The notes beneath the pieces were generated by a model that was not told the origin of the DNA, made no database searches, and saw only the letters and a list, made by a program, of their open reading frames with translations. This document shows positions 26,822 through 45,475 of a stretch of 64,000 nt of DNA, piece after piece. Both the position numbers and the translations under genes were made by a program. This DNA comes from Muricomes sp. Its GTDB lineage: Bacteria > Bacillota > Clostridia > Lachnospirales > Lachnospiraceae. The stretch spans positions 49,589 to 113,588 of the forward strand of contig JASGKW010000019.1 in NCBI GenBank assembly GCA_049840515.1, written 5' to 3'. Numbering within the stretch: the stretch's first letter is position 1; each line of letters starts with the position of its first letter.

Positions 26822-27337
26822 TTAGTCATCTATTCTTCCAATATAATAATCATACCCTTTTCGCACATTACAAAACATACAGGTATCTTTATATTGCTGT
26901 TCTGAATCTACCCTCTTAATATAGTTATTAGGTATCTCATAAAAATGTCTTGCACACACCGGACATAAGCATAATAATAAAGACGGTTCTTTAACTATTC
27001 CTGTGCTTGTACGCAATGCTACATTTATTTTTTTCATATGCACACTATCCAGCGTTCCAACATATTTTTTTAATCTCTTTTTATCAATTGTTCTTAATTG
27101 CTCAAGCAATACAACAGAGTTTTTTTCTAACCCCACAATGTCTCCTAACTTAACATGAGTAGGAAGTTTAGTCTTGGTCTTGCTTGTAATTGCTGCAACA
27201 ATAACCGTGGGACTGTACTGATTTCCCCTATTGTTTTGAATTATTAACACAGGACGATATCCCCCCTGTTCGCTCCCATAAACGGGACTTAAATCGGCAT
27301 GATAAATATCCCCTCGCCAAATTCTTTTATCTTGCAC
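26822..27337 (-). CDS. mazF: MazF/PemK (EndoA-like) endoribonuclease toxin fused to a C-terminal 4-Cys zinc-ribbon-like extension
   Basis: Residues 1 to about 115 are close to Bacillus EndoA ([63 protein letters not shown]). An extra tail of about 55 aa carries CPVC...CMFC. The start is GTG with the SD GGAGG 9 nt upstream. Confidence 0.8.
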
Positions 27338-27926: not shown

Positions 27927-28409
27927 CTACACTTCAAAATTTTTTAATTCTTTTTCCAATTGTTTAATAGCAGCATCAATAGAACGCTTGACTGGTACTT
28001 TCGTACATCCTTCTCTTTGAGCAATCTGCTCATATGTCATGTCTTCAAAGTAATACAGAATCAGTCTACGCCGCTGTATATCCGTTAATTTTCCAATCGC
28101 CATATGTAAACTTTCAATCAGAAACTTTTTTAATACACTTTCTTCCATATTGTGTGGTTTATGAAAAGCTCTTGTATTCAATGTAGAATCCCATATCTCT
28201 GACTGTTCAATATGTCTATCCCACACATTAAAATATGACAAATCTTCTAACTCAAATGAATTAAAAGCCTCATATAGCATTTTGTTGATTTCAAATCTAT
28301 TATATATACCTTGTCCATCTTTGAATGATATATAATAATGTCCATTCTGTTCACATATATCGTAAGGATTATACTTATCCTTTCTTCTTTTTGGATGTTT
28401 TCCCTCCAT
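27927..28409 (-). CDS. Sigma-70 region-4-type HTH protein (mobile-element sigma-factor-like regulator)
   Basis: The C-terminal part reads LTDIQRRRLILYYFEDMTYEQIAQREGCTKVPVKRSIDAAIKQL, a region 4.2 HTH. The SD GGAGGAA lies 7 nt before the ATG at 28409; the ORF is open to a TTG at 28424. Confidence 0.7.
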   Translation of the reverse strand: MEGKHPKRRKDKYNPYDICEQNGHYYISFKDGQGIYNRFEINKMLYEAFNSFELEDLSYFNVWDRHIEQSEIWDSTLNTRAFHKPHNMEESVLKKFLIESLHMAIGKLTDIQRRRLILYYFEDMTYEQIAQREGCTKVPVKRSIDAAIKQLEKELKNFEV

Positions 28410-28420
28410 ATTAAATTCCT

Positions 28421-28453
28421 CCAATTTAAATTTTTAAGAAAAATTTAAATTGG
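28421..28453. repeat. Perfect 15-bp inverted repeat with 3-nt spacer, abutting the sigma-like gene SD
   Basis: The sequence is CCAATTTAAATTTTT-aag-AAAAATTTAAATTGG. On the minus strand, the arm proximal to the gene ends in the TTGG of the TTGGAGG Shine-Dalgarno. Confidence 0.5.
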
Positions 28454-28514
28454 AGGGGAGAACGACACCCACCCCCCTTATATAATCTGCTGGTTTTTCC
28501 TATTTTGGGGCAAA

Positions 28515-28548
28515 TAAAAAAACCAGATAGTTTGTAAAACCATCTGGC
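28515..28548 (-). terminator. Intrinsic terminator (second) downstream of the kinase gene
   Basis: On the minus strand: stem CCAGAT / ATCTGG followed by UUUUUUUUAUUU. Confidence 0.55.
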
Positions 28549-28669
28549 ATTAAAGTTTAAATTATGAACTTCTATTTGATTGCACACTTTTATCTTAGTT
28601 AATTTTTATACTGCATTTAAGTTAATTGTTCTTATTAAGTAATATCCGCCAATAAATCATATATCTCAT

Positions 28670-28707
28670 AAAAAATCTTCCATTTCTATATTAAAAAGAA
28701 ATGGAAG
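28670..28707 (-). terminator. Intrinsic terminator downstream of the kinase gene
   Basis: 11-bp stem CTTCCATTTCT / AGAAATGGAAG with a 9-nt loop, followed by a U-run on the minus strand. Confidence 0.6.
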
Positions 28708-28776
28708 ACAAAGTTAAGTAAACTTATTTCAACTATAACTATTTTCTCAATTAGCAATACTGTTTATCTATAAAAT

Positions 28777-30084
28777 CTACAAATTGCTTGCTGACAAAAT
28801 AATCTTAGTCTCAAAATAATCTTGAGAATAATCATAATCCATATTTCCACAATACTTATTGGCAAGGTTTGATAAAATTTCCATTCCTATTCCTAAATGA
28901 CCCGGTTTTGTAGATTCCAAATTTCCATTCCTGCAATGTGGCACTACTCCAATTGTATTTCTCATCCCAATAACAACATATTGATTGAAACGGTGAATCC
29001 GAAGACGGATTTCTTTCTTCTCTTTATTGCAATCCCTACAAGATTCAATAGCATTATCAAATAAATTAGAAAAAAGTGATGTCACTTCGCTTTTTCCCAT
29101 AAAGTCAAACTTTATATCCTGAAAATTAAGTTCCAGGCTAATATCTTCTTGTTTACATATTTGGATTTTCTCCCAAATAATAGTGCATACAATCTCATCC
29201 TCACATTTGAATTGTTGTTGAATATCATTGATAGATTCCATTAACTCACCAATATAAGTTTTTTTAATTTCCTTTTGACTCACATCCAAATTCTCAATTA
29301 CCTGTATATGCTTTTTAAAATCATGTATCAGTTTTTGCATTTCATCATATTGAGTCTGTAAACTTTCATAATACTTTACGGTCATTTTACTCTGCTGTTC
29401 TGTTAATTCCGTTTGCTTTTCAAGTATGGCATTTTGAGAGATCATTTTAAACAAATATATTACTCCTCCGTCAACAATCACAAACCCAATTGCTAAAATG
29501 AGCAATGTAATATTACTATGTGAACTTCTATGATCTTCTATAAAATAGCAAAGAAGTCCTAATTCAAAAATTAATAAAAAAATAGTGTAAAAGTGAATAT
29601 ACCTTGATACTTTGCCAATCTGACTTCGCATAATTAATTGTATTAGTAAACTACACGTACACAACATAGCTAACGCATTACAAATCCCGGAAATCATAAA
29701 AAACTGTGAATTTTCTAGCACCACGTATAAACTTGCACGCATAAAAATCGAAAAAATTGTAGTTACAATTAGATCTACCAATGCAAAATAAATAATAACA
29801 ATTGCCGAATTAATCACCACATTTTTTCTTTTGGTTTTATATAAAATGCATGATATCAAACACAAACTCAGCATAGAATATATTACATTTACCCCTGGCC
29901 AATTAAACATAGCAATTATGGTACTTAAAATAACATATACCAAAAATCCCCCCCAATAACATAATTTATTGTTTAAATATTTCTTTTCATATAAAGAGCC
30001 CATAATTGCAAATAGAACATAACCCGAAACAATTGAAGAAATAATCAGGCTACTTAAATAAAGCATTTTTATCACACCTTTCAA
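28777..30084 (-). CDS. agrC: AgrC-type (HPK10) sensor histidine kinase, GHKL ATPase domain
   Basis: 435-aa ORF. The N-terminal half has about 6 predicted TM helices and the C-terminus has a GHKL domain (NLFDNAIES..., GHLGIGMEI). It overlaps the LytTR regulator stop by 4 nt. Confidence 0.8.
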   Translation of the reverse strand: MKGVIKMLYLSSLIISSIVSGYVLFAIMGSLYEKKYLNNKLCYWGGFLVYVILSTIIAMFNWPGVNVIYSMLSLCLISCILYKTKRKNVVINSAIVIIYFALVDLIVTTIFSIFMRASLYVVLENSQFFMISGICNALAMLCTCSLLIQLIMRSQIGKVSRYIHFYTIFLLIFELGLLCYFIEDHRSSHSNITLLILAIGFVIVDGGVIYLFKMISQNAILEKQTELTEQQSKMTVKYYESLQTQYDEMQKLIHDFKKHIQVIENLDVSQKEIKKTYIGELMESINDIQQQFKCEDEIVCTIIWEKIQICKQEDISLELNFQDIKFDFMGKSEVTSLFSNLFDNAIESCRDCNKEKKEIRLRIHRFNQYVVIGMRNTIGVVPHCRNGNLESTKPGHLGIGMEILSNLANKYCGNMDYDYSQDYFETKIILSASNL

Positions 30085-30800
30085 ATTTTATTAAATGTAG
30101 ACTGCAAAAAGTTATTAAATTCAACTCTAAATCCAGCCGCTCTCTTTTGTGCTAAAGGAATAATTGAACCATTTTCCATAAATATATCAAACCCTTTTAT
30201 AAGCTTTATATAAAGCATATTGACAATGAACCCCTTATGAGGTGAGTTAAAATCATATTTTTGAAATTTTTCGAGCAGTTCCTTCAAACTATATGATGAA
30301 ATATATTTTTCTCTGCTACAATTAATAATTACTCTTCTAGATGAATATTCAAAATAGTAAATATCATCTAAATCTAAGGTGACAGTACCTTCTTCTGTTT
30401 CAAACGCATATTTTTGTTTCTTTCTAGCATTATCCGAATATTGCACTGCTTCCAGCAAAGCACAGCAAATCTCATTTTCACAAACGGGTTTGCTAATATA
30501 ATCAAAGGCATGAACCTTATAGGAACTTTTTATGTAATGCTCATAATTTGTTACATATATTATTTTGCTATTCACATCCCATTTTCTTAACATCCTTGCC
30601 GTTTCAATACCATTTAAATTAGGCATTTCAATATCTAGGAAAATAATATCAAAACGAATATGTGATTCTAATAAATTAACTCCACTTATAAATTTAACAA
30701 CCAACACTGGCCTTCGTATATTATCAAACCATCCTTTAATGATAGCAAATAATTTCTCTCGTACAGATTCATCATCGTCGCATACTGCAACCTTAATCAC
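30081..30800 (-). CDS. agrA: LytTR-family response regulator (AgrA-like)
   Basis: Receiver domain (KVAVCDDD...IIFLDIEMP) plus a C-terminal LytTR DNA-binding domain; 239 aa. Confidence 0.88.
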   Translation of the reverse strand: MIKVAVCDDDESVREKLFAIIKGWFDNIRRPVLVVKFISGVNLLESHIRFDIIFLDIEMPNLNGIETARMLRKWDVNSKIIYVTNYEHYIKSSYKVHAFDYISKPVCENEICCALLEAVQYSDNARKKQKYAFETEEGTVTLDLDDIYYFEYSSRRVIINCSREKYISSYSLKELLEKFQKYDFNSPHKGFIVNMLYIKLIKGFDIFMENGSIIPLAQKRAAGFRVEFNNFLQSTFNKI

Positions 30801-30846
30801 TATATCACCCCATTCAATATCCTATAACCTTTCAATTATTATATAC

Positions 30847-30875
30847 TAAAAAAAGAATCTTTCCATCAGATTCTT
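30847..30875 (-). terminator. Intrinsic terminator after agrB
   Basis: On the minus strand: 8-bp stem AAGAATCT / AGATTCTT followed by UUUUUUU. Confidence 0.6.
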
Positions 30876-30886
30876 TTCCTCATTCT

Positions 30887-31450
30887 TTATTGATTCCCTT
30901 TTTGTCTCTCAATTTCACTCATTAATAACATCACTGTCTGAATAATCCAAGCACATGAAATTCCTTTCAAAATTACGTTCAAAAAGAATCCCGCCAAAGA
31001 AATACACCCAAAACCAATTAAATATTTATGAGTTTTTTTACGATAATCCACCATTTCGTTTTCTTCCAGGGGATTATTATCTGCCTCCTGCGGTGATAAA
31101 CTCCATATAGTATAGCCACAAATTAACATCATTGTATAAAGTATATATGTATCCAACCTTTGAAATATATTTAGCAAGATGAGTAAACAAATTGAGACAA
31201 TAATGGTACAACAGTAACACCCTGTCACTGACTTTGCGTGGTAGCCGCCAGAATACTCTCGCATACTGGCATATGCTACCAAAAAGATAAAAACACCCCA
31301 AAACTCGCCACCAATGAACCCAATAACCAAAAATAATAATATATGGATAATCTTTTTTATAAATATATTAAGGCCATACCGATATATCTCAGTTTTTTCT
31401 TCGTCAATCACTTCGCTTCTGATAAGAAAAGATAAAATCTTTTTTTCCAT
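30887..31450 (-). CDS. agrB: AgrB-family autoinducer-peptide processing membrane protease
   Basis: 187-aa polytopic membrane ORF with the AgrB signature region MREYSGGYHAKS..C. Confidence 0.85.
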   Translation of the reverse strand: MEKKILSFLIRSEVIDEEKTEIYRYGLNIFIKKIIHILLFLVIGFIGGEFWGVFIFLVAYASMREYSGGYHAKSVTGCYCCTIIVSICLLILLNIFQRLDTYILYTMMLICGYTIWSLSPQEADNNPLEENEMVDYRKKTHKYLIGFGCISLAGFFLNVILKGISCAWIIQTVMLLMSEIERQKGNQ

Positions 31451-31454
31451 GTCA

Positions 31455-31610
31455 CTACTTGTTGCTTTTCTTCATACTTTTTACGCTGTCTGGCATTTTA
31501 GGTTGTCCATGCAAAAAAATACATGCTGAATTAGCATTTTTTTCAGCCATCTTATAAGATGTTACCGCAATAACTTCTGCTAAAGCCTTTTTAATTTTCT
31601 TGTCCATCAT
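31455..31610 (-). CDS. agrD: AgrD-like autoinducing-peptide precursor (51 aa, unannotated)
   Basis: This ORF falls below the track cut-off: MMDKKIKKALAEVIAVTSYKMAEKNANSACIFLHGQPKMPDSVKSMKKSNK. It has an amphipathic N-terminus, a single Cys, then a QPxxP charged tail as in AgrD. The SD GGAGGA lies 6 nt upstream, and the stop is 4 nt before the agrB ATG. Confidence 0.65.
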   Translation of the reverse strand: MMDKKIKKALAEVIAVTSYKMAEKNANSACIFLHGQPKMPDSVKSMKKSNK

Positions 31611-31663
31611 AATTATTCCTCCATAATCAATATTTTTTATAAATCTAGTTAAAGTATATTTCC

Positions 31664-31921
31664 TTATTTTTCAAATTTCAACAAGCCTGTGTAAAATACG
31701 ATTTTTTTGTTCAAACTACGACTTTTTAATGCAATTTTTATCAAATTCCCCGAATACTCCTGAGATATAAGAATATCTATATCCTCTAATGCTAATTTCT
31801 TAAATTCATCTAAGACACATTGAGGCAATATCGATTCTACTACAATCCAAGGGACACAACATTGCCTATACACATGAATTCTAATATATAAACGGATATC
31901 CTTCTTATTTAAAACCTTCAA
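31664..31921 (-). CDS. Hypothetical protein (85 aa) upstream of agrD
   Basis: ORF on the same strand, 53 nt upstream of agrD and divergent from the XRE gene. I did not recognise a family. Confidence 0.35.
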   Translation of the reverse strand: MKVLNKKDIRLYIRIHVYRQCCVPWIVVESILPQCVLDEFKKLALEDIDILISQEYSGNLIKIALKSRSLNKKIVFYTGLLKFEK

Positions 31922-31977
31922 AGTTTATTTCTATTTAAAATTTCATGCCCTATAATTTAGCAAGATGGAGGTACTGT

Positions 31978-32223
31978 ATGTGCAGATTCGATAAGACAAT
32001 TATGGGAGAAAGAATTAGAGTACAACGTGAATCACTGAATATCAGTCGGGAGCAGTTTGCAGAAATGCTTGGTGTTACCACAAAATTCTGTGGTGATATT
32101 GAATCCGGTGCACGCGGTACATCGCCTCAAACGCTGACCAAAATTTTTGATTGTCTAATGCTCTCTACTGATTACATTCTATTTGGAGAATCATCAAAAA
32201 CAAGTGATCAAATTTTCCTTTGA
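31978..32223 (+). CDS. XRE-family HTH transcriptional regulator (in-frame TGA at 32221; frame continues to 32304)
   Basis: HTH region MGERIRVQRESLNISREQFAEMLGVTTKFCGDIESGARGTSPQTL. The SD GGAGG lies 6 nt before the ATG at 31978. After the TGA, the same frame reads AINLCPETKKTHLLTVIEKIIESYNA*. Confidence 0.8.
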   Translation: MCRFDKTIMGERIRVQRESLNISREQFAEMLGVTTKFCGDIESGARGTSPQTLTKIFDCLMLSTDYILFGESSKTSDQIFL

Positions 32224-32366
32224 GCAATTAACTTATGCCCCGAAACAAAGAAAACACATTTGCTTACTGTTATAGAGAAAATTATTGAAAGCTACAATGC
32301 ATAAAATATTCAATAAAACTATATTTATCCATTATTATTTTATGATATGTTATTCTCCCTAAAAGT

Positions 32367-32394
32367 TTATCCGCCGGAATATTTCGGCGGATAA
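32367..32394. terminator. Bidirectional terminator between the XRE gene and the permease gene
   Basis: Perfect 10-bp stem TTATCCGCCG / CGGCGGATAA with an 8-nt loop. Confidence 0.6.
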
Positions 32395-32465
32395 ATTAAT
32401 TATGTAAAAACAAAATATGTTTATTATCTGAGACTTTTCCTAAATAATGTCCTATTTTAAATTTA

Positions 32466-35094
32466 TCACCCGTCATTTCTCAATTGCTCTATTGCACTTT
32501 TTCGAGATGTTTTCCTATAGACAACCTGTGGTAGCAAAACACAAAAAAGCAACAGAATGACAGCCACAATAATCAGCTCTTTTACAGGATAAACAAACCG
32601 AAAATAGGAAAGATTTCTCTTAATCATGAAGCCTACTCCCCAAATCAACAATGAACCTATGCTCAGTAAAGCTGCAAGCAAAATCCCCCAATAATATAAT
32701 CCTTCCATTATCATCATTTTTTTCAATTGCTTTTTTGTCATTCCAACACTCTCCATGATTACAAATTCCTTTTTTCTGGAAACCATATTAGTAATAATTA
32801 CATTCAAATAGTTAATAATCCCCAACAAAAGCAGACTTAGGCAAAGTGCAAACATTACGGTCCTTGTGTTATTCACATAATCTTCCATCCTTGCCCTTTC
32901 ATCTGAAGTGCTGAAAAGAGAATAAATATTAACTGCTTTTTGTTCGCTGTTCTTTTTTTTGATCAGTTCTGTCAGTTTTGCCTTTGCTAATGCCTCTTGT
33001 CCCTTTTTTGCATTTATTGAAAAACCAAATATCTGCTTTGGAAAATGAAGCCTCTCAAACCCTTTCTCACCAATAAGGAAATAATTAATGCCTTCTCCAT
33101 TCCAACTCATATCTAATGGAGGAAACCCTTTTATGGTTGTATCAAGATAACCGGAACAAACAAACTCCACTCCTTTATCTTCCGGATTCCCCTCTCCATC
33201 CATGGAATAAACTTGAGCAGGCATTCCATTTATTCCTTTTGCATTTAACTCTGACATTTCAGATAATTGATGTTTGTGCAGCACCAGTATACCAGTTCCA
33301 TTGCTTAAACTGTCTATATCAATGTCCAATTGATTCTTTCTTATATAATTTTCTAGTTTTTGAATATACTTGTCACTTACCACTTGTATTGTCATTGACG
33401 TATTACTTGTTCCACTTGCATACCCTGCTTCTTCAAGTGGCTGTACATATTCATCTGAGAAATCATATGAACCATAACATCCCCATATTTCTTTTACGCT
33501 ATTTTTGTCCAGTTCCTCCATATTTTCTATTTCTTTCATAAGACTTTCATCAAACAATGGTTTCTCTCTATCTACATGGAGCTGCTCCACCTTACTATAT
33601 GGAAATATATAAGCATTTACTGCGTCTTTCTGCGTACCTATTTCAAAATCTGATTTCTGAGAAAGTTGGTTCATTGTATCAGTGCCTGTTGAAATAAATG
33701 CAGCCAAGAGTGCCATCTCACATCCCACGAATAAAGCTATCAATGTAATCAAAAGCTTAGGCTTAGAACGAAATAAATTGTATCGGGCCATCCTCCCTAT
33801 TGACGCTCCCTTTCTTGATTTTGTTTTTCTATGGGGAAATACAGGAGACTGCACTATATCTATATGCTTCAATCGGGCTTAATTGTTTCAATTTTCTCAT
33901 GGTGTGTCCATTAGCCAATAACATCAGAACAATCACAATCAAAATTGCCCCCATCAAAATCTGAGGATACAGTATTGTCTGGATACTTATCTTTCCATTT
34001 TGCTGGAGAAACAAGCTACGAAATAATATGGGGAATCCTATTCCGCCAATCAAAAGACTGGCAATCCCCCCAATAATAGAACCCTTCACAATAATCTCTT
34101 TATTTTGTCTAAACAACAGTTTTTTGACCTGTTTTTGAGTAACACCAATTGTGAAAAGCAGACCATAATATTGAATATCTTTGGTAAAGGAAATAGAAAG
34201 CACATTATATATCAAAAGGTAAACACTCAGCAAAACAATAATGGTACATAAAACTGCAATCCCATATCCACCTATAAACTGATTCACAGCCTGAAAGCTG
34301 ATGGAATAACCTCCGACAAATTGTTGATTTTCATCTGTCAATGGTACATCTTGATACAACTGTCGTTCCATCTGGATATCACTTAAAAATTTCGATTTAA
34401 ATGTTATGAGTAACTTTTCAGGATATTTTGCTATTTCTTTCTCTTCCAAGTATTTTTCAGATAAATATACAGTTGGTATATTTTCTGATTCTTTTATGTA
34501 GTCATTATAATATCCGGATAACACAAATTCCTCTGTCAGTCCATTGCCATCGTTAACAGACCAACTTTTAAACTGGATGGGAACAGATAGTTTCATTCCA
34601 ATTTGAGGCTCCTGAATACCCAAACTTTCAAATAGTTTTTTCGGCAGCATTATTTCCTTTTTATCTGCCGGATAATGTCCTACGATTCCATCATAAGCAG
34701 GTTTTACAATTTTTTCATATCCAATTTTATCAAGAACCTTACATGTTGCAAAAGGTGTATCATTCTGAATCCAATCCCCTACGCTACACTCCTGTCCCAC
34801 ATATTCAATATAATCCAAATTCATTATTTTTTCATATTGTTCTTCTTTTGCATTGACTAAATAGGCAGATGCCGCACTGCCATTTTCCCGCAGGTTTTTT
34901 ATAGAATCAATAACAACCTTACCTTTTGCTACACTAAATACAGAGAAGAGCACAAATATCGCCAGAACTACTGCAAAAATCAAAATCTTATTACGATTGC
35001 GGTTTGCTTTTCTACTTGCACTTACGAGCTCCTGTATATCATCATTTTTTTTAGAATTTTTCATAAGTTGCCTCATATTATACGATTCTTCCAT
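32466..35094 (-). pseudogene. ABC transporter permease with two FtsX domains (about 880 aa), split by a 1-nt frameshift
   Basis: ORFs 33829-35094 and 32466-33872 overlap. Each has an extracytoplasmic domain plus an FtsX-type 4-TM bundle. The junction reads ...KLKQLSPIEAYRYS / SPVFPHRKTKSRKGASIGRMARYNLFRSKPK. Confidence 0.8.
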
Positions 35095-35740
35095 CTTCTA
35101 TCTGAATCACCCGATCTGACATGTCTGCAATTTTTTCATCATGTGTAATAATAGCCATTGTTTGATGATATTTCTTTGCCATTGCTTTCATAAGATGAAT
35201 TACTTTTTCACTGGTTTTGGAATCCAAGTTCCCCGTAGGTTCATCTGCCAATATAATAGCAGGCCGTGTTACCAGGGCTCTCGCAATTGCTGCCCTTTGT
35301 TGTTGCCCTCCAGACAATTCAGCAGGCATCTGATAAAGTTTTTCTTCTATGCTTAATTCCACTGCAAGTTGTTCAATAAATTCTTCATCAATAACTTCGC
35401 CATCCAGCTTAACTGGTAATGCAATATTCTCATATACATTCAATATTGGCACAAGATTATAGTTTTGAAATACAAATCCAATATTAGACCGTCGGAAAAT
35501 AGTAAGATCTTCACCATTCATAGATGACAAGACTTTCCCTTTCACAGATACCAGACCAGATGACGGATAATCTAAACCGCCCAACATGTTTAACAATGTT
35601 GATTTTCCACTTCCAGATGCTCCTGAAATAGCTATAAACTCGCCTTCATCAATAGATAAGTTGACATTATCTATTGCCTTGACTTCAATGTTACCGGTAG
35701 TATACACTTTGTTTAAGGAAACCGCTTTCATAATTTCCAT
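35078..35740 (-). CDS. ABC transporter ATP-binding protein (MacB/LolD-like)
   Basis: Walker A GASGSGKST, signature LSGGQQQR and Walker B ILADEPT. It overlaps the permease start. Confidence 0.9.
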   Translation of the reverse strand: MEIMKAVSLNKVYTTGNIEVKAIDNVNLSIDEGEFIAISGASGSGKSTLLNMLGGLDYPSSGLVSVKGKVLSSMNGEDLTIFRRSNIGFVFQNYNLVPILNVYENIALPVKLDGEVIDEEFIEQLAVELSIEEKLYQMPAELSGGQQQRAAIARALVTRPAIILADEPTGNLDSKTSEKVIHLMKAMAKKYHQTMAIITHDEKIADMSDRVIQIEDGRIV

Positions 35741-35782
35741 AAATCCTCCTTTTGAATCTGCACTGTAAAAACTATTTCAACA

Positions 35783-36448
35783 TCAGTTTATATATTTATC
35801 AAGAGGAGCTTTATCTACTCCTAAAAAATTTAAAATTTGAATGTCACCAAAATAATAAGACTCTATTTGCCCATTTTTAATATGAAACAAAGTGGGAACC
35901 GCTGCTATTACCAGATTTTCATCTGACACATTTGTATAATCTATAATTGGTGATTCTCTGACAGCATATATTTTTCCTTCTTCTTTTCCAGCATTTAGTT
36001 CCACAAATTCTTTATCTGCTTTTTTTATACTATAATCAAGAGGGGAATATCTTTCTTTCAAATTTGCCTCCGTAAGCCCATCCTGTAAAATCATTTTTCC
36101 TTTAACAACTTTACCTATCTCTTTGTCATATGCTTTATGGTGTTCATCCCAGTTATAATCCTTTATTCCTTCATTTCCTTCTGCTCTTGTATCTAACACA
36201 TATAGTTGATTGTTTCTTGCAAATTCGATAATTTCATCTCTTACATTATCACAATATGGACACCCTGCTCTTTGCGCATATACATAATAATCATCTTGCT
36301 CTTCCAAAAATTTGTTCACACTTGTTGTTTGCAAATCTTTATAGGGATTATCCGGAGCCCCTTTCACCCCTTGATAAAGCAAATATACGCCTCCACCTAT
36401 AATCATTACTAGAAATAAAATTCCTAACATATACATTTTTCTTCTCAT
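35783..36448 (-). CDS. Membrane-anchored thioredoxin-like protein (CPYC), bacteriocin-accessory-type
   Basis: N-terminal TM helix, CPYC at residues 63-66 and the cis-Pro motif VPT at 184-186. It lies between the C39 exporter and the ABC ATPase. Confidence 0.6.
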   Translation of the reverse strand: MRRKMYMLGILFLVMIIGGGVYLLYQGVKGAPDNPYKDLQTTSVNKFLEEQDDYYVYAQRAGCPYCDNVRDEIIEFARNNQLYVLDTRAEGNEGIKDYNWDEHHKAYDKEIGKVVKGKMILQDGLTEANLKERYSPLDYSIKKADKEFVELNAGKEEGKIYAVRESPIIDYTNVSDENLVIAAVPTLFHIKNGQIESYYFGDIQILNFLGVDKAPLDKYIN

Positions 36449-36495
36449 ATGTATGTACCTTTTATGGATTTCTCCATTTCCCTTCTTTTAGTATA

Positions 36496-38682
36496 TTATT
36501 GCCCTAGCAGCCTACAATAAATTCCTCCATTATCAATGAGTTCTTGATGGTGTCCATATTCTCTAATAACACCCTTTTCCAATACATAAATCATATCACA
36601 AGATTTTGCAATATTAGTTCTATGAGTAACAATAATGATTGTTGTGTTTGGTAAATACTGTTTTATTGCATTATTTATATTTTTTTCTAAATCAAAATTT
36701 AAATTACTAGTTGCCTCATCTAAAATTAAAATATGGGGGATTTTCAATATTGCACGCGCAATCATTAAACGCTGTTTTTGACCAGTTGATAGGTTACTTC
36801 CTCCCTCTTCCAATATAGTGTTATATTGTAAGGGTAACTCCATAATAAACTCGTGAATGTAGACTAACTTACAAACTTCAAACACGTCCTTTTCATTAAT
36901 ATTTGTATTTCCTAATAACAAATTATCCATTATAGAAATACTAAATAGAAATGTTTCTTGTGACACATAAACGATTCGTTCTCTTAACCATTCTGTATCA
37001 ATTTTGTCTATATTTTTTTCTCCAATAGTAATATAGCCATTTTCAAGTTTATATAATTTCATTAATAATTTCGTGATTGTAGATTTTCCGGAACCACTTT
37101 CTCCAATTATTGCGACATTAGATTTGGCCTTAATGTTTAAGCAAAAATTGTGAAGAACATTCTTCTCTGGATTATAGCCAAACGAAACCCCATCAAAGCA
37201 AATATCTTTTTGCAATATATCCAAATCTATTTCTTCTTCGCCCTCTGTAAATGTACATTCCTCTAAATCCAAATCCATAATTTCTTGTATTCTCTCTGTT
37301 GCCACAAGAGCTGTTTGTAACTGAGCTTGCATACCTATTAGATTTCTAATAGGATCGAAGAAGTATATAATTAATGCATTAAAGGTTATTAATTCGCCTA
37401 ACGTGAGCCTATTTAAGAAAATAAATATTACACCCATACCGAGAATGATTATTTCTCCAGTAAATCCAATCCAACTCTTTAATCCATATTGGAGGTTTTC
37501 TAAGCTTCCTAATTTATACATACTTTCTAAATAAGAATTAAATTTCTTTTTAACCATTTCAAAAGCATATGATTTTGCATTATATACTTTAACAGTCATT
37601 ATTCCATTAAGAAAATCTAAGATTCCAGACATTGTCTGTGCCTCATTTACAAGTTGATTTTTGCTGTATGTATCATATTTTTTTCTAAAAAGTATGGCAA
37701 CAATTATATAAAGAAAACACATAACCATCAACCCTAAAAACATTTCCTTATTTTGATAGTACAATATAAACCCTGCTACTATTACTGCAATAATATCAAT
37801 AAAAACTGTAAGGACTATCTTTGATAATAAATCTTGTATAACTGCAGCATCTTGGAATCTTGCAACTAATTCACCTACCCTGCGGTTATCAAAGAATTTT
37901 TGTTGCATTTTCAACAAATGACTATAAAAATCCATAGAAATCTTATTATTTATATGTTTTCCTAGTACCAATGATATATTTATTCGTAAAACATTTAAAA
38001 TTACTTTAGCTATAGTTAAAAGAAGAAAAGCCTCAACAACCAGAACCAAACTCTGAAATGCATATTCAGGCAAGATTTTATCTATTAGTATTTTATAATA
38101 AAATGCTGAGCCTATATTAATCACAGTATATAACAATGAAGTTGCAATAATAAAACAACATATTTTTTTATCTGAACTAAGTACCTCTAAAAGAAATAGG
38201 AATTTAGACGGCTTTTGATATTTTTCCCCAAACTCTTCTGTTGGTGACAATACTACCAAAACTCCAGTCCATTTATATTGTTTTTTACTCACTTTACAAG
38301 TTTCCAATTTCCTAAAAGAATCCCTAGACAATTTGATGATACCCTGAGCAGGGTCTGAAATAATAATTTTATCTTTTTCTATTTTTAAAATAACCACATA
38401 ATGTAATAAATCATTATCTACAATTACATGTGAAATACAGGGTAATGGAATGTTATCCATGTTATCCGTCTCATCCTGTATACATCTCATTGCATCAACT
38501 TTAAATCCAATAGATTGTGCACCTGAAATAAGGCCCTTAAGGCTAGTTCCCGTTGTATTAGTTCCCATTTCTTCTCTTAGCCTAGCTATTGACACATTTC
38601 CTTTATAAAACTTTGTAATAATAGCTAAGCATGTCGGACCACAATCAGACATATCATGTTGCTTTATATTAACAAATCTCAT
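36496..38682 (-). CDS. Peptidase C39 domain-containing ABC exporter (bacteriocin/competence-peptide type, ComA/LagD-like)
   Basis: N-terminal C39 motif QHDMSDCGPTCLAII, six TM helices, Walker A GESGSGKST, signature LSTGQKQR and Walker B LILDEATS. The ATG at 38682 follows GGAAGGGA. Confidence 0.9.
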   Translation of the reverse strand: MRFVNIKQHDMSDCGPTCLAIITKFYKGNVSIARLREEMGTNTTGTSLKGLISGAQSIGFKVDAMRCIQDETDNMDNIPLPCISHVIVDNDLLHYVVILKIEKDKIIISDPAQGIIKLSRDSFRKLETCKVSKKQYKWTGVLVVLSPTEEFGEKYQKPSKFLFLLEVLSSDKKICCFIIATSLLYTVINIGSAFYYKILIDKILPEYAFQSLVLVVEAFLLLTIAKVILNVLRINISLVLGKHINNKISMDFYSHLLKMQQKFFDNRRVGELVARFQDAAVIQDLLSKIVLTVFIDIIAVIVAGFILYYQNKEMFLGLMVMCFLYIIVAILFRKKYDTYSKNQLVNEAQTMSGILDFLNGIMTVKVYNAKSYAFEMVKKKFNSYLESMYKLGSLENLQYGLKSWIGFTGEIIILGMGVIFIFLNRLTLGELITFNALIIYFFDPIRNLIGMQAQLQTALVATERIQEIMDLDLEECTFTEGEEEIDLDILQKDICFDGVSFGYNPEKNVLHNFCLNIKAKSNVAIIGESGSGKSTITKLLMKLYKLENGYITIGEKNIDKIDTEWLRERIVYVSQETFLFSISIMDNLLLGNTNINEKDVFEVCKLVYIHEFIMELPLQYNTILEEGGSNLSTGQKQRLMIARAILKIPHILILDEATSNLNFDLEKNINNAIKQYLPNTTIIIVTHRTNIAKSCDMIYVLEKGVIREYGHHQELIDNGGIYCRLLGQ

Positions 38683-38732
38683 TTTTTTCCCTTCCAACTG
38701 AATATTTATTTCGATTTTATGTTTTACTAAGA

Positions 38733-38786
38733 AAATAACTCCTTATGAATTTATGGATATGACCATACCTTCAAAAGGAGTTATTT
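38733..38786 (-). promoter_or_regulatory. 12-bp-stem hairpin between the peptide gene and the exporter (possible attenuator or processing site)
   Basis: On the minus strand: AAATAACTCCTT, a 30-nt loop, AAGGAGTTATTT, then UCUU. Confidence 0.35.
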
Positions 38787-38828
38787 ATACCCTTATGGAA
38801 CTATCCAATGAATTTTTTTGCAATAACC

Positions 38829-39008
38829 TTAGAAATATTGAGAGCAGTTGTGCTCATAGCAATATTTGATATATGCTTTCTGCTGCTCGTATGTTAATGC
38901 GTTAAATGTTCTCTGAAATTCAGCTCGTGATCTTGGGCAAGAAAAACCTCCACCAGTAATTCCTTCCATTTCTTCTGATGTTAAAACACAAAATCCTTTA
39001 ATAGCCAT
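38829..39008 (-). CDS. Double-glycine-leader peptide precursor (59 aa, unannotated)
   Basis: The sequence is MAIKGFCVLTSEEMEGITGG / GFSCPRSRAEFQRTFNALTYEQQKAYIKYCYEHNCSQYF. The leader fits LSxxELxxIxGG. The SD GGAGG lies 7 nt upstream, a promoter lies 55 nt upstream, and the C39 exporter follows directly. Confidence 0.7.
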   Translation of the reverse strand: MAIKGFCVLTSEEMEGITGGGFSCPRSRAEFQRTFNALTYEQQKAYIKYCYEHNCSQYF

Positions 39009-39061
39009 ACTGTTACCTCCTTTTTTGATTTTTTTATTTAACTTAGTTCTAAGTTGGTGTA

Positions 39062-39090
39062 ATTATAAAATTCAATTCTTGTTTCGTCAA
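39062..39090 (-). promoter_or_regulatory. Sigma-A-type promoter of the GG-leader peptide gene
   Basis: On the minus strand: TTGACG (39085-39090), a 17-nt spacer, then TATAAT (39062-39067). Confidence 0.5.
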
Positions 39091-39326
39091 TAATATCGGG
39101 CAAATGACAATTTTCACGTATAAGCTACGATTCTTTTTATCTTATTGATAAACATCATGTAACTTTTAGTTTTAAATTTCAACCCTAAAAGTTTCAGACA
39201 ATTTTTATTAATATATAATAATTTGTACCTCATTTTCAATTCAGTTAATACTACTAATACACTTTAAAGAGTGTGTATACAAAAGAATGGACAGAGACAT
39301 ATCCTCTGCCATCCTTCCGACACTTT

Positions 39327-41147
39327 CTAATATTTCACTAGACCATATCCATAAATATTGCCATATCCAATCGCATAGTTCCGTCTCTGACATCTATCAC
39401 CACTGTTTCCTTCAATGGTATAAACTACACCATCCTCACATTTCTCCACAATTCCCACATGGTCAATACTTCCATCATTCCCCCAATCAAAAAAGATAAT
39501 ATCTCCTCCTGCCGGAACATAGTTTCCATCCTGCCACTGCCCCTTTTGCTGGAACCATGACACACCATTCGAACAAAGAGCAAACTTTGGCATAATACCA
39601 GAATCAATATATCCACATTGCTGGGCACACCAGGACACAAAACATGCGCACCATTCCACACGACTGCCAAATCCATACCAACTCCAGTAGGGTTGTCCTC
39701 CTACGTTACCCTCCTGCGATAGTGCTATCTGCACAATGGCCTGATTGCCAACACTTGTAGGGATTCTACCAAAAACATAGTACCGGAGCACATGAGGAAC
39801 ATAGTGTTTATCCCCATATCCGCTCCAGCCCATGCGCTGAGCCATCATATCTGAAAACTCTGCCGCATTAACCGCTGTATATCCCCCATAGTTATTTTTT
39901 GCCCATGTGATATAACCGTTTCCAAAATTGTATCCCTGCAAAGCCAGCTTAATCTGGTCCATATCCAGCGGATTTTCAACATCAGCACTCTCCAAACAGC
40001 TCTTTAACACCTGCACTCCACATTGAATGGAATATTCCGGTTCTGTGATACCATTTGGCTGGCGTGGAAAGCGGGTATTAAAGGAACTTTCTGCACTCTG
40101 CATGGGGTCACTCCCCCACCCTCCACTCTCCTGCATCATCACCGCCTTAATCAATTCCACATATTCTCCAACACCATATTGTTTTGCATACTGCCGGATT
40201 ACTGGCTCATAGGCATTTACTTCTTCACTGACCGGAGTAACTGTACGGGAATTTCCACCCCCTGTGATACAAAGGATTCCACCAAACAAAACGATAAGAA
40301 TTAGAATCAGGACTGACATCCAACCTCCTGCAGCTATGGCAGTCACCAGTGTTTTGGTTGCAGCTATGATAGCTTTCACTGCCGATGATGTAGTTTTCAC
40401 GGCTGCTTTTACCGCCTGCTCCGCTGCTTTTTCCGCAATTCGTGCTACTTTTATGGCTCTTTGGGCTGTTCTGGTGGATACTCTTGCTGCTACCTGTGCG
40501 GCTTTCGCCGCCTCATGTGTTGTCTTAATCGTCGTATGCGCTGTCCGCTCTGCCGTCTTTACAGATTTCCCGGAACATTTGACCATACCTTTCCCAGCGT
40601 TCTTTACAGTCCGTTCCATTTTTCCAGCCGTTTTTATAGTTTTTTCTCCCCGCTCCAACGTCTTAACTGCCTGTTCGGAAACTTTCCTGACCTCTGATAC
40701 ACGATGTCCTGTAGTTTTTTTCTGTGACAGTGCCTGTCCTCTTTTCCATATCTGATCTTTGGTCTGGTGAGAAGTATTTTCCCTGCCTGCAAAGGAAGGT
40801 GGCAGGGAAGAATCCCCTCCAATATCAACGTGGCTTTCCTGAATGGCCTGTTTCATATTTCTTGTTTCTTTGGCAACCTGATACTTTTCCTTTGCCGCAT
40901 AGACACCCCGTTTTCCTAGCTTACCAAGCTGCCGGACAGCAGTATACCTGGCAGAGTCTATGGTATGCATCACCTTTTCCCCCGCATAGCCTTCAGGGGT
41001 ACTTTGTTCCTGGGTCTGGGGCTGTGTTTTTTCTGCAGTATCTTTTGTCCTTACAAAAGCATGTTTCATGTGGTCTGTAACGGTTATGGTCTTATCCAAT
41101 GCCTTGATGTCCTTATAGATTCTACGTGTCTTAATCTCCCTGACCAT
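39327..41147 (-). CDS. Conjugation-associated peptidoglycan hydrolase (lysozyme-like/transglycosylase + CHAP domains)
   Basis: 606-aa ORF with a TM segment, the lysozyme-like motif AVMMQESGGWGSDPMQSAES and a C-terminal CHAP domain (WCACFVSWCA...DHVGIV). Confidence 0.8.
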   Translation of the reverse strand: MVREIKTRRIYKDIKALDKTITVTDHMKHAFVRTKDTAEKTQPQTQEQSTPEGYAGEKVMHTIDSARYTAVRQLGKLGKRGVYAAKEKYQVAKETRNMKQAIQESHVDIGGDSSLPPSFAGRENTSHQTKDQIWKRGQALSQKKTTGHRVSEVRKVSEQAVKTLERGEKTIKTAGKMERTVKNAGKGMVKCSGKSVKTAERTAHTTIKTTHEAAKAAQVAARVSTRTAQRAIKVARIAEKAAEQAVKAAVKTTSSAVKAIIAATKTLVTAIAAGGWMSVLILILIVLFGGILCITGGGNSRTVTPVSEEVNAYEPVIRQYAKQYGVGEYVELIKAVMMQESGGWGSDPMQSAESSFNTRFPRQPNGITEPEYSIQCGVQVLKSCLESADVENPLDMDQIKLALQGYNFGNGYITWAKNNYGGYTAVNAAEFSDMMAQRMGWSGYGDKHYVPHVLRYYVFGRIPTSVGNQAIVQIALSQEGNVGGQPYWSWYGFGSRVEWCACFVSWCAQQCGYIDSGIMPKFALCSNGVSWFQQKGQWQDGNYVPAGGDIIFFDWGNDGSIDHVGIVEKCEDGVVYTIEGNSGDRCQRRNYAIGYGNIYGYGLVKY

Positions 41148-41181: not shown

Positions 41182-41946
41182 TTATTCCACAACCTTTTTT
41201 GCCACTACAACAAGCCGCCCATTGGGATTGGAGTATTCACAGGTGGATAAAGTCAATAACTTATCCCCATATGTGGCAGTGACACCAGTATCATACAGGG
41301 AAAGGGGCTTGCACCCCTCCACATATTTCTGATAGTCTTCTGCCGTTTCTGCATTAGCAAATAGATAATACTTAAATCCAGTATCGTCATATACCGTAGT
41401 CTTAAATACCGCAATCACTTCATAGCTCACCTGTTCTGTCAGAGTATCAAACTGAATGATTTTGTGGTCCTCATAAAACTTCTCCGTCTCATATTCCATC
41501 AGTCCTGCAAACATGGAGCCATCGTTCATGTGATGTCCATAAATAATCACATTATCACTGGGTTTGTAAGGGTCACAATGTTCAGCAATATAGGGAACTC
41601 CATAATCACTGTATTCCCCCTCAAAGTTATGCTTTAGGTAATAATCTGGATTATTGGGCGTATACATGACCGGAAAATTAATTTGCGTTCCCTCAACCAA
41701 AATCCATCCGGCTAAATCTTGATTCTTCCGAAATAATTCCCTGTACTTTTCAAGGGGAGACTGGTTTTCTGTTTCCTCGGTTTCCTTTTTCTCTGGCTCA
41801 TCTGCCTGCTCCACTGTTTCAGCTAACTGCTTAAATTCGTCTTTTGCTTTTTTCTCTCCTGCATAATTACCAATAACTTGATATATGGAACACACAAACA
41901 GCAAAAAACTAAGGGCAAGGCCCACCATATAGATTTTTTTCTTCAT
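41182..41946 (-). CDS. srtB: Class B sortase
   Basis: N-terminal TM helix, then the YGHHMNDGSMF and LSTCEY catalytic His/Cys motifs. The SD GGAGGA lies 7 nt before the ATG at 41946; the ORF is open to 41988. Confidence 0.8.
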   Translation of the reverse strand: MKKKIYMVGLALSFLLFVCSIYQVIGNYAGEKKAKDEFKQLAETVEQADEPEKKETEETENQSPLEKYRELFRKNQDLAGWILVEGTQINFPVMYTPNNPDYYLKHNFEGEYSDYGVPYIAEHCDPYKPSDNVIIYGHHMNDGSMFAGLMEYETEKFYEDHKIIQFDTLTEQVSYEVIAVFKTTVYDDTGFKYYLFANAETAEDYQKYVEGCKPLSLYDTGVTATYGDKLLTLSTCEYSNPNGRLVVVAKKVVE

Positions 41947-42035
41947 ACTCTTATCCTCCATCATTTCCGGCTCATGCATCATAAACACATGAAACTAATT
42001 CATAAAAAAATAGGCTTGCTGCCTATTCTTACACG

Positions 42036-43105: not shown

Positions 43106-45475
43106 TTATCGACTCCGATTTACACTATCCTCTCCCGGCTTGGTTGTCATCAGCTTGTACAACTGTGTATTTCTTGGAAATTTATTGATAAATGGCACAA
43201 GGGAACTACCATATTTAATCAATCCACACCCTGCATCTGCATTGGTGATATAACTCATCTGCTCATTGGAAATATTCAAAAGGTCTGCCAGTTTTTGTCG
43301 GTCAGATGCTGCCTGATTCAGCATAACAATATATTCACTGTTAGATAGCATAGTGCTGGCAAGTACAGAATCCAGAAGGTACTCCACATTCTGTGTGATA
43401 GCATTAGGAAATGCATTTCTTTTTCGGAACCTGCGCCACGCTGAATTAAAGAAAGCCCCTGAAAATTCATTTTCGAATACCACATGAAATTCATCCAAAA
43501 ATAAATGAGTGCGCTTTCCTTTCCTCCAGTTCTCCGTTACACGGTTGAGCATGGCATCTGTAATTACTAACAAGCCCATTGTTTTTAACTGTTTTCCCAA
43601 ATCCATAATGTCATATACCACCATACGGCTGTTGATATCCACGTTACTCTCATGGGCAAAAGCATCCAGGCTGCCACTGGTAAATAGTTCAAGAGCAAGA
43701 GCCAAATCTTTAGCCTCCTTCTCCGGCTGTTCCAACATTTTTTCACGCAAAATACATAACGTCGGCACTGCGCCTCCTCTCTGATAGTCTTCATAGACAG
43801 CGGCGGTACAGCGGTCAATCAAGGACTTTTCCTTTGCAGTCACACCTTTTTTATCCAACTGCTCAAACAGGGATAACACAAATTCGGATTTTTCAATCAC
43901 TGGATTGCCTCCATCACCATAGCCCTCCACCATGTCCATTGCATTGATATGGTCATGACTTCCAGCAGCAATGCGGATGACCTCACCACCCATTGCCTCA
44001 ATTAAAGAGGCATATTCCCGCTCAGGATCACAAATCAAGATATCATCCCCGGTAGCAAGAGCCAGAAAAACAATCAGCATTTTTGCACTGAAACTCTTGC
44101 CACTTCCCGGAACTCCCAGCAGAAAAGAATTGGGATTGAGCAGGTTCGCTTTGTTACACATAATCAAGTTATGGGAAATGGCATTTTCTCCGCAATAAAT
44201 TCCTCCTTCATCCATAATCTCCTGTACCCTAAAAGGCATTAATACCGCAAGGCTTTCCGTAGTCAGTGTCCGTATCGCATTGATTTTCCGATGTCCTATA
44301 GGAAGTGCAGTGTTCAATCCATCCATCTGTTGGTATTTTAATGTGGCAAACTGGCACAAGTGCTTTCTTGCCGTAGTCAGCAGAGCATCCGTGTCTGCGT
44401 TCAACTGTTCCAACGTATCTGCGGTATGGACCAGTGTCAACACTGCAAACATCATCCGCTGGTCCCGTGTAGTCAGATCATCCAAAAATTCTTTACTTTC
44501 TTTTCTCTGCTGTTCCATATCGTAGGGCACCATTGCACTGTAATTATTGTTAGCATTTTGCCTGCGCTGCCAGTTTGTGATATTGGTTTCCACACCTAGC
44601 AATCGGTTCTCCACTTCCCGCACCGCTTCATCTGTAGGAACTGGGATGATATCAATGCTCATCATCAGATTACGGTTCAAATCCGTTAATTCTGCAACCA
44701 TACTGTCCTTGATATAAGAGGCATACTCCTTGAGAAACAGCACCCGTCCATAACGATTTCCCATCACAAAGTGGTCTTTTTCAAATTCCAAACTGTCCGG
44801 ACAGATAAAATCTTTAAAACTATGACCTTTCTTCATCGTTTCCTTTAAATCAAAAGTAAAGCCTGTCTCCTCTCCCACACGGTAAAAATCATGCAATGTC
44901 CGTAACTTATCTGTTGCATCCAGTTCCACACATTTTGACCCCAATCGTGAAAAATGAGACATTAAGTCCACGCTGACACGAGAGAAGTAAGTCCTGGCCT
45001 CCTCAATGGATTTCTTATACACAGATACAGTCACATACTTTTCCTGTACCATGCTGTTTGCTCCGGTAGCTTTTTCTAACAACATGGTATTGTACTCTTT
45101 TCGGTATAAGTCCAGTACATCCTCCCGCATGGGAATTAAAATGGACTGCTCAAAATCTTGTCTGTTTAAACGACGGTTATGAATAGTAATCTTTGTAGTC
45201 GCACCACTGTCAAAAGAATTTAATAATTCGCTGTACTCCAAAAACATAGCCTCTTTATCTTCCCTGCTTGCCACTGCATAATTAATATCCATAAATTTAT
45301 AGGTTTGAGCAAACTTATTCCTTCCCACCTGAAAAATCCCATCTGCCCAGATAGCCTGAATGGGAATGGCCTGCTGTACACTTTTTGGCACAACAAACTT
45401 CTCCCTGTCCTGCCTGAAAATAGTTGTCAATGTCCTAATCATTCCGCTTTCTCTCCTCTTTTTCATGATTCTCAA
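43106..45475 (-). CDS. virB4: VirB4-family conjugative T4SS ATPase (TcpF/Orf16-like)
   Basis: 789-aa ORF with Walker A GVPGSGKSFSAK and Walker B-like HLFLDEFH. Confidence 0.85.
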   Translation of the reverse strand: MRIMKKRRESGMIRTLTTIFRQDREKFVVPKSVQQAIPIQAIWADGIFQVGRNKFAQTYKFMDINYAVASREDKEAMFLEYSELLNSFDSGATTKITIHNRRLNRQDFEQSILIPMREDVLDLYRKEYNTMLLEKATGANSMVQEKYVTVSVYKKSIEEARTYFSRVSVDLMSHFSRLGSKCVELDATDKLRTLHDFYRVGEETGFTFDLKETMKKGHSFKDFICPDSLEFEKDHFVMGNRYGRVLFLKEYASYIKDSMVAELTDLNRNLMMSIDIIPVPTDEAVREVENRLLGVETNITNWQRRQNANNNYSAMVPYDMEQQRKESKEFLDDLTTRDQRMMFAVLTLVHTADTLEQLNADTDALLTTARKHLCQFATLKYQQMDGLNTALPIGHRKINAIRTLTTESLAVLMPFRVQEIMDEGGIYCGENAISHNLIMCNKANLLNPNSFLLGVPGSGKSFSAKMLIVFLALATGDDILICDPEREYASLIEAMGGEVIRIAAGSHDHINAMDMVEGYGDGGNPVIEKSEFVLSLFEQLDKKGVTAKEKSLIDRCTAAVYEDYQRGGAVPTLCILREKMLEQPEKEAKDLALALELFTSGSLDAFAHESNVDINSRMVVYDIMDLGKQLKTMGLLVITDAMLNRVTENWRKGKRTHLFLDEFHVVFENEFSGAFFNSAWRRFRKRNAFPNAITQNVEYLLDSVLASTMLSNSEYIVMLNQAASDRQKLADLLNISNEQMSYITNADAGCGLIKYGSSLVPFINKFPRNTQLYKLMTTKPGEDSVNRSR

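Follow-up and report, generated by a model that had tools for sequence, protein, structure and literature searches.

The window analysed here is a 64-kb stretch of a Muricomes sp. metagenome-assembled genome (MAG; contig JASGKW010000019.1). On its minus strand lies a 59-codon open reading frame (ORF) whose product, a candidate bacteriocin precursor, begins with a double-glycine (GG) leader; an ORF scan found it to be the sole GG-leader ORF of the window. An initial annotation had reported this ORF with its translation, and both proved exact. It had also called the gene unannotated, which holds insofar as the product is un-named, but not insofar as the gene had escaped notice: NCBI already lists an identical protein from a Muricomes sp. 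MAG, hypothetical protein QM793_12525, and one homologue, RGF75918.1 of Ruminococcus sp. AF31-14BH, has already been automatically named 'bacteriocin'. The peptide gene is followed by genes for an ATP-binding cassette (ABC) exporter with a C39 peptidase domain, a thioredoxin-like protein, an ABC ATPase and an FtsX-type permease (Table 1). In all loci, these five genes occur in the same order, whatever flanks them.

The leader has the features of leaders recognized by peptidase-containing ABC transporters (PCATs). It falls within the range of 15–30 residues and ends in GG; its positions -4, -7, -12 and -15 are hydrophobic, and position -8 is acidic (F-15, L-12, E-8, M-7, I-4, G-2, G-1). Searches with bacteriocin-leader hidden Markov models (HMMs), one of the checks proposed in the initial annotation, gave matches confined to the leader, for PF10439 in 7 of 11 family members (best E = 0.0016) and for TIGR01847 in 5 of 11, all of them sub-threshold; the core had no match. 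A few members also showed weak leader matches to the ComC and BlpC models. Because the window peptide has three consecutive Gly residues, its cleavage site is ambiguous if that peptide is considered by itself. Homologues reading GG/K, GG/Y and GG/F (the slash marking the cut) place cleavage after G19-G20, in agreement with the site originally proposed.

The neighboring exporter scores 551.8 bits against TIGR01193 (peptide cleavage/export ABC transporter), above the cut-off of 523.85. It matches PF03412 with E = 1.9e-32, retains the catalytic residues Cys19, His99 and Asp115, and is 53–70% identical to its counterpart in every homologous cassette, in all of which it is adjacent to the peptide gene. 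The earlier claim that a GG-leader peptide is followed on the same strand by a C39 ABC exporter was thus correct. Cleavage of the precursor and its export by this PCAT are strongly supported predictions, because three things point to them: the motif in the leader, the complete catalytic triad of the exporter and the way in which PCATs are known to work.

A word-indexed protein search with the peptide recovered only the peptide itself and one homologue (71% identity). The family was instead recovered through homologues of the thioredoxin-like neighbor and their contigs, followed by an exhaustive HMM search; one genome scan, a metagenome scan and a cluster look-up supplied further members. Altogether, about 30 distinct peptide homologues were found in [Ruminococcus] torques, Coprococcus catus, Ruminococcus sp. 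and Muricomes, the [R.] torques variant being present on at least 1000 public contigs. The cassette occurs in one of 185,579 species-representative genomes, a count that understates its occurrence, since this mobile cargo varies from strain to strain. Among the metagenome loci, L033–L037 were discarded: they proved to be phage glutaredoxin-like genes with the GCPYCDN motif alone in common.

Conservation of the ORF, the GG site and the Cys pattern in related loci had also been named as a check. Wherever a locus includes enough DNA on the upstream side, the peptide ORF is intact and heads the same cassette, and the GG site and the first and last Cys are conserved. According to the Nei–Gojobori method, nonsynonymous divergence (dN) in the core is 0.03–0.25 with synonymous divergence (dS) saturated, and omega in the leader is 0.2–0.96, so that the leader evolves faster. 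Strong purifying selection acts on the core. A conserved core behind a faster-evolving leader is the pattern expected of a bioactive core behind a recognition leader, and on this comparative evidence we consider the 59-codon gene real and a chance ORF excluded. On some contigs, a fusion product of the peptide and the thioredoxin-like protein (P0031) has been called.

The mature part of the window peptide is atypically hydrophilic and rich in Tyr and Phe, as the initial annotation had pointed out. Its grand average of hydropathicity (GRAVY) is -0.92, its net charge is +2, and 9 of its 39 residues are aromatic; the computed reduced mass is ~4779 Da and the computed pI 8.6. Across the family, cores of 35–40 residues have a net charge of +2 to +7, pI of 8.6–9.8, GRAVY of -0.7 to -1.4 and 5–9 aromatic residues. 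The core has no match in Pfam, NCBIfam or PDB by sequence or fold, and its motifs gave no full-text match in the searchable literature and none in the Hungate1000 supplements. PDB sequence matches to 7vg8 and 6taf (E = 0.4–1) were set aside as chance.

The three Cys residues of the core are at mature positions 4, 30 and 35, where they had been reported. Invariant residues were read from an 11-member peptide alignment, in which three core Cys are present in eight sequences; the additional full-length variants of the three-Cys clusters all have them too. The first and last are invariant, and the middle one is replaced by Val in the divergent members P0024, P0027 and P0028; the P0024-type locus has the same cassette as the others. 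An AlphaFold2 model built on a 7-member alignment contains helices at residues 28–37 and 40–52, with a predicted local distance difference test score (pLDDT) of ~80 in the core. In this predicted helix-turn-helix, Cys24 precedes helix 1 and Cys55 follows helix 2, so that both are at the open end. A fold search of the model against PDB returned nothing significant. From conservation together with predicted topology, rather than from measured distances, we infer that a single Cys4–Cys35 disulfide (mature numbering) closes the hairpin and that Cys30 is dispensable. The suggestion of one disulfide plus a spare thiol, made when only the window peptide was at hand, fits these comparative data, as it fits the presence of a CPYC protein in every cassette.

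That CPYC protein, which has no match in Pfam, carries an N-terminal transmembrane helix following a basic N-terminus, and its CPYC and VP motifs are invariant across 14 homologues. The best fold matches of its AlphaFold2 model (pLDDT 81) are thioredoxins, including 1zma, the bacteriocin transport accessory protein of S. pneumoniae. Both halves of the fold align to 1zma, at R..CPYC and VP..HI.DG, with ~90 extra residues between them. Sequence and model together suggest that the protein is probably an extracytoplasmic disulfide oxidoreductase for the peptide. We treat it as working like PedC/Bta, without assigning it to that family.

The last two genes encode an ABC transporter. The score of the ATPase against TIGR03608 (putative bacteriocin export ABC), 192.8 bits, is below the cut-off of 254.85. 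Homologues of the permease are single genes encoding 799–869 aa; aligned with them, the window is read in two frames, the change coming near 33830–33870. The split seen here may be real, or it may reflect decay or a MAG assembly error; since each half is a complete FtsX unit, the halves could still function. We infer that the ATPase and the permease provide self-immunity to the producer. The cassette comprises, besides the peptide, the exporter, the thioredoxin-like protein, the ATPase and FtsX alone: no glycosyltransferase, radical-SAM, LanM/LanB or other modifying enzyme was found in it at any locus, which is consistent with an unmodified peptide.

Upstream of the peptide gene, both the TTGACG-17-TATAAT promoter and the GGAGG sequence 7 nt before the ATG are located as claimed. 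The promoter agrees with the consensus at 11 of 12 positions, better than any other sequence in the region. Its hexamers are kept in a homologous locus, L001, as TTGACG-17-TATACT, and homologues have an AAGGAGG-type Shine–Dalgarno sequence at the same place. A palindrome in the 5′ untranslated region, a possible operator, is kept in L001 with a spacer 1 nt shorter. Farther upstream is an imperfect direct repeat, and the pattern TCGTAG-N12-AATYGT occurs only twice in the window, at the peptide promoter and upstream of agrD (31698-31721). The whole promoter block (repeat, hexamers and palindrome) is conserved between the window and L001 (~1010-1177) despite saturated synonymous sites. The LytTR regulator of the nearby agr module may bind at the TCGTAG-N12-AATTGT repeat.

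Between the peptide and exporter genes lies a long hairpin with a folding energy of -31.3 kcal/mol (z = -5.35). At the corresponding place, 6 of 7 other loci have a hairpin too, though its sequence differs. A scan for intrinsic terminators missed the window hairpin, as its apical region exceeds the 8-nt loop limit of the scanner; folding recovered it. The element is probably a leaky terminator (attenuator) or a 3′ stabiliser of the mRNA.

Table 1. Features of the peptide locus and its surroundings (window coordinates)
Feature	Position	Strand	Remarks
Peptide ORF, 59 aa	38829..39008	-	59 codons, start 39008, end 38829
Double-glycine leader, residues 1-20	38949..39008	-	MAIKGFCVLTSEEMEGITGG; F6, E13, G19, G20 invariant across family
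Core peptide, 39 aa + stop codon	38829..38948	-	GFSCPRSRAEFQRTFNALTYEQQKAYIKYCYEHNCSQYF; invariant C24, L38, Y46, I47, Y51, E52, C55
Promoter, sigma-70 type, TTGACG-17-TATAAT	39062..39090	-	-35 at 39090-39085, -10 at 39067-39062
Shine–Dalgarno sequence GGAGG	39016..39020	-	7 nt before ATG
Palindrome AACTTAG-AA-CTAAGTT in 5′ untranslated region	39040..39055	-	Possible operator, read from sequence
Imperfect direct repeat TCGTAG-N12-AATTGT	39107..39130	-	Ends 13 nt upstream of -35; candidate LytTR (AgrA-like) site
Long hairpin with U-rich tail	38733..38786	-	Between peptide and exporter genes; 24-nt arms, 88% complementary
C39-peptidase ABC exporter (PCAT)	36496..38697	-	Peptidase_C39 + ABC_membrane + ABC_tran; starts 131 nt 3′ of peptide gene
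Membrane-anchored thioredoxin-fold protein, 221 aa	35783..36448	-	CPYC active site, cis-Pro loop (AVPT), ~90-aa insertion
ABC ATPase, MacB/LolD/Lcn972-ABC type	35078..35740	-	ABC_tran; kept in all cassettes
Duplicated FtsX-type permease	32466..35094	-	Two overlapping ORFs, 33829-35094 and 32466-33872, FtsX domain in each
XRE-family HTH regulator	31945..32223	+	HTH_3
AgrD-type autoinducer precursor, 51 aa	31455..31610	-	TIGR04223, 40.8 bits (cut-off 19)
AgrB-type peptide-processing membrane protease	30887..31450	-	PF04647, E = 1.9e-35
LytTR response regulator (AgrA-like)	30081..30800	-	Response_reg + LytTR (PF00072 + PF04397)
AgrC-like GHKL histidine kinase	28777..30084	-	HATPase_c_5 (PF14501)
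Lysozyme/CHAP protein	39327-41147		Upstream flank of island
Sortase	41182-41988		Upstream flank of island; DUF6674 also there
Putative VirB4-like conjugation ATPase ORF	43106-45475		Upstream flank of island
Putative serine recombinase, 628 aa	24706-26592		Other flank of island; judged from translation
MazF-like toxin	26822-27337		Other flank of island
Sigma-70 region-4 protein	27927-28424		Other flank of island

Next to the cassette, the window carries a full agr-type system for quorum sensing, in which a LytTR regulator and a GHKL (HPK10) kinase accompany AgrD and AgrB (28777-31610). At 51 aa, the AgrD precursor is shorter than a 60-aa ORF cut-off. The kinase is 63% identical to a truncated kinase beside the L001 cassette. 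An 85-aa ORF (31664-31921, minus strand) between the XRE gene and agrD has no family match and overlaps the repeat at 31698-31721; it is unlikely to be a gene. The cassette and the agr module share a low-GC island (~28000-39100) with 29–36% GC (about 30%), as against 40–48% (about 43%) in the flanks. An integrative conjugative element (ICE) harbors this island, with conjugation genes on one side of it and a recombinase/toxin region on the other. As mobile cargo, the five genes are carried in ICEs, on plasmid-like elements and between insertion sequence copies.

The regulatory surroundings of the cassette differ from locus to locus. In L003, L005, L008, L009, L013, L014 and L038, a divergent BlaI-like repressor and a short (~380 aa) BlaR1-like M56 protease are encoded upstream of the peptide gene. 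The peptide promoter of L005 has an ATTGTA-N6-TACAAT palindrome overlapping its -10 element, and imperfect versions occur in L003, L008, L009 and L013. L012 has a LytTR two-component system with no visible agrBD between permease and regulator, and an HTH_3 gene at the same place as the XRE gene of the window. In L001 (7442-8476), the XRE gene, agrD, agrB and the regulator gene are deleted and the kinase begins at the equivalent of residue 88; the FtsX permease is C-terminally truncated, and the genes for the peptide, exporter, thioredoxin-like protein and ATPase are intact. Since most loci have BlaI/BlaR1-like regulators, regulation is not a fixed part of the system; what is fixed is the five-gene core. 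Some copies show signs of decay: the exporter gene is split in L009–L011 and in L038 (9001-18177), where the gene for the thioredoxin-like protein is also interrupted by a TniB/rve transposon. The L038 cassette is on a MobA/RepA_N/ParM-like plasmid-type element.

What, then, does the peptide gene encode? We consider it probable that the product is a class II (IId-type) bacteriocin precursor, the peptide being unmodified apart from a disulfide and its activity being predicted. It has all the sequence-testable features of PCAT-exported class II peptides and lacks those of class IIa bacteriocins and glycocins. The initial annotation had raised the possibility of a new bacteriocin class. This is not borne out, as a GG-leader peptide, a PCAT, a thioredoxin-type accessory protein, ABC self-protection and LytTR/agr regulation make up the standard class II layout. 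Judged by its sequence, the peptide core is an uncharacterised family within a standard class II architecture.

The closest functional analogue, and the closest in organisation, is bactofencin A of Ligilactobacillus salivarius, a class IId bacteriocin. It is a cationic, hydrophilic GG-leader peptide with one disulfide, and its cluster encodes a C39 ABC transporter along with a 'bacteriocin transport accessory protein' but no classical small immunity protein (PMC3809560). The two systems have in common the GG leader, a small hydrophilic cationic core, two Cys for one disulfide (predicted in our family), the C39 transporter and the accessory protein. On the other hand, there is no sequence similarity between the peptides, and no helix is predicted for bactofencin A, with its 22 residues, as against the helix-turn-helix predicted for the cores of 35–40 residues described here. 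Immunity to bactofencin A is provided by a DltB homologue, in contrast to the candidate ATPase and duplicated FtsX permease of our cassette, and the accessory protein here differs in its ~90-aa insert and membrane anchor.

Two other groups of systems share parts of this layout. In the pedABCD operon, the transporter gene is followed by that of an accessory protein, with a thioredoxin fold and a CxxC motif, which secures disulfide formation. Pediocin-like (class IIa) PedC/BrcD systems thus have the GG leader, PCAT export and a thioredoxin-fold CxxC accessory protein in common with the Muricomes cassette. However, the YGNG[VL] pediocin box is absent from all members of our family, which have neither a YGNGV box nor a hydrophobic C-terminal hairpin, and no PedB-type immunity protein accompanies them. 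With Lcn972-type and BceAB/MacB-type ABC self-protection, the cassette shares a TIGR03608-related ATPase and a large FtsX permease beside a hydrophilic secreted peptide. Lcn972 itself is a Sec-exported protein of 66 aa. Its systems differ from ours in that the peptides are unrelated, the ATPase here is below the TIGR03608 cut-off and the permease is a duplicated unit of ~855 aa.

Several observations weigh against assignment to class II. So hydrophilic a core is unusual among class II bacteriocins, it has no membrane-active helix, and the net charge of the window copy is only +2. The thioredoxin-like protein is far below the cut-off of TIGR01295 (PedC/BrcD), at 15.8 versus 120 bits, and so falls outside that family. 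No small classical immunity gene is present in the cassette, and the protective role of the FtsX transporter is itself a prediction. Moreover, a frameshift divides the FtsX gene of the window, which may reflect decay of the locus or else an error in the MAG assembly. As for regulation, most homologous loci pair with BlaI/BlaR1-like regulators and not with agr, and the repeat assigned to the LytTR regulator is a pattern derived post hoc from its own two sites, so that its statistics are not independent evidence.

The initial annotation had offered a secreted signalling peptide as another possibility: a pheromone or inducer, sensed by the adjacent LytTR/GHKL system or by the BlaR1-like M56/BlaI pair, that would induce its own operon or other genes. 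We regard this as unlikely, though worth keeping in view. GG leaders and C39 export are common to pheromones of the ComC/BlpC type, and it is to the ComC and BlpC models that the leaders of a few members show weak similarity; LytTR/GHKL two-component neighbors occur in some loci, some sensor–regulator pair adjoins every cassette, and L012 has its LytTR system without a visible agrBD. A hydrophilic core without a pore-forming helix would also suit a signal. Yet the window has its own signal-production pair, AgrD and AgrB, and would use AgrD as its signal; the presence of a full AgrD/AgrB/AgrC/AgrA set weakens the proposal. Furthermore, the type of regulator swaps between loci while the peptide is conserved, unlike in a co-evolving ligand–receptor pair, and L001 lacks agr genes even though its peptide, C39-ABC, thioredoxin-like and ATPase genes are intact (its FtsX permease being truncated). 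The core is about twice as long as those of ComC/BlpC pheromones, contains Cys and would need an oxidoreductase; to our knowledge, the known GG-leader pheromones are shorter and have no Cys. Finally, the ATPase, the ~855-aa FtsX permease and the disulfide-forming accessory protein, present in all loci, fit a toxic product, and a pure pheromone would need no dedicated ATPase and FtsX transporter.

Quite unlikely, in our view, is the idea that the family represents a new mechanistic type, a hydrophilic, non-pore-forming, Tyr-rich hairpin with a single disulfide that binds a specific envelope target. Such a peptide might perhaps also be the ligand of the BlaR1-like M56 sensors, acting as toxin and inducer at once, with a free Cys30 serving for mixed-disulfide capture or dimerisation.

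We also considered a modified peptide, that is, a ribosomally synthesized and post-translationally modified peptide (RiPP) such as a glycocin-like hairpin whose spare Cys would bear an S-linked sugar. Glycocins such as sublancin 168 and glycocin F are disulfide-held helix-loop-helix peptides with a GG leader, a SunT-type exporter and a thioredoxin-like gene, and the sublancin locus reads sunA-sunT-bdbA-sunS-bdbB. Our family likewise has a predicted helical hairpin with a disulfide joining its N- and C-terminal ends, a GG leader, a SunT-like exporter and a thioredoxin-like gene in the cluster, and, the number of Cys being odd, one thiol is left without a partner. Nevertheless, such a product is very unlikely because a modifying enzyme is absent from the cassettes, with no SunS-type glycosyltransferase at any locus. 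In addition, the peptides have one conserved Cys pair and not two nested C-X6-C motifs, and the spare Cys, which would carry the sugar, is not conserved, being Val in three members. It is scarcely credible that the ORF is a chance or decayed frame in a locus that is an inactive remnant in this genome: the frameshifted permease of the window and the split exporters and transposon insertion of other copies would agree with decay, but the core is under strong purifying selection, the promoter, Shine–Dalgarno sequence, ORF, exporter and accessory gene of the window are all intact, the [R.] torques variant is widespread among public contigs, and the FtsX halves, each a complete unit, could still function.

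If the peptide is a class IId-type bacteriocin, as we favor, the system may work as follows. At high cell density, the LytTR regulator of the neighboring agrBDCA genes would activate the peptide promoter, and the hairpin after the peptide gene would leave more mRNA for the peptide than for the exporter. The exporter's C39 domain would cut after Gly19-Gly20, and the transporter would export the 39-aa core. Outside the membrane, the anchored CPYC protein would oxidise Cys4 and Cys35 and so close the open end of the hairpin, as conservation and the predicted fold suggest, with Cys30 staying free or dispensable. The cationic, Tyr-rich, hydrophilic hairpin would act on competing Firmicutes, which is the least certain step. 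An envelope or receptor target is favored over a non-specific pore because the peptide has no hydrophobic helix and a MacB/Lcn972-ABC-like transporter is present. The ATPase and the duplicated FtsX permease would protect the producer.

The general understanding of class II bacteriocin systems would stay unchanged by this result. However, should the peptide be active, it would be the second, structurally distinct hydrophilic cationic single-disulfide class IId bacteriocin after bactofencin A. Common Lachnospiraceae of the human gut carry the cassette, and its product, if active, would be a narrow-spectrum weapon shaping competition among gut Clostridia.

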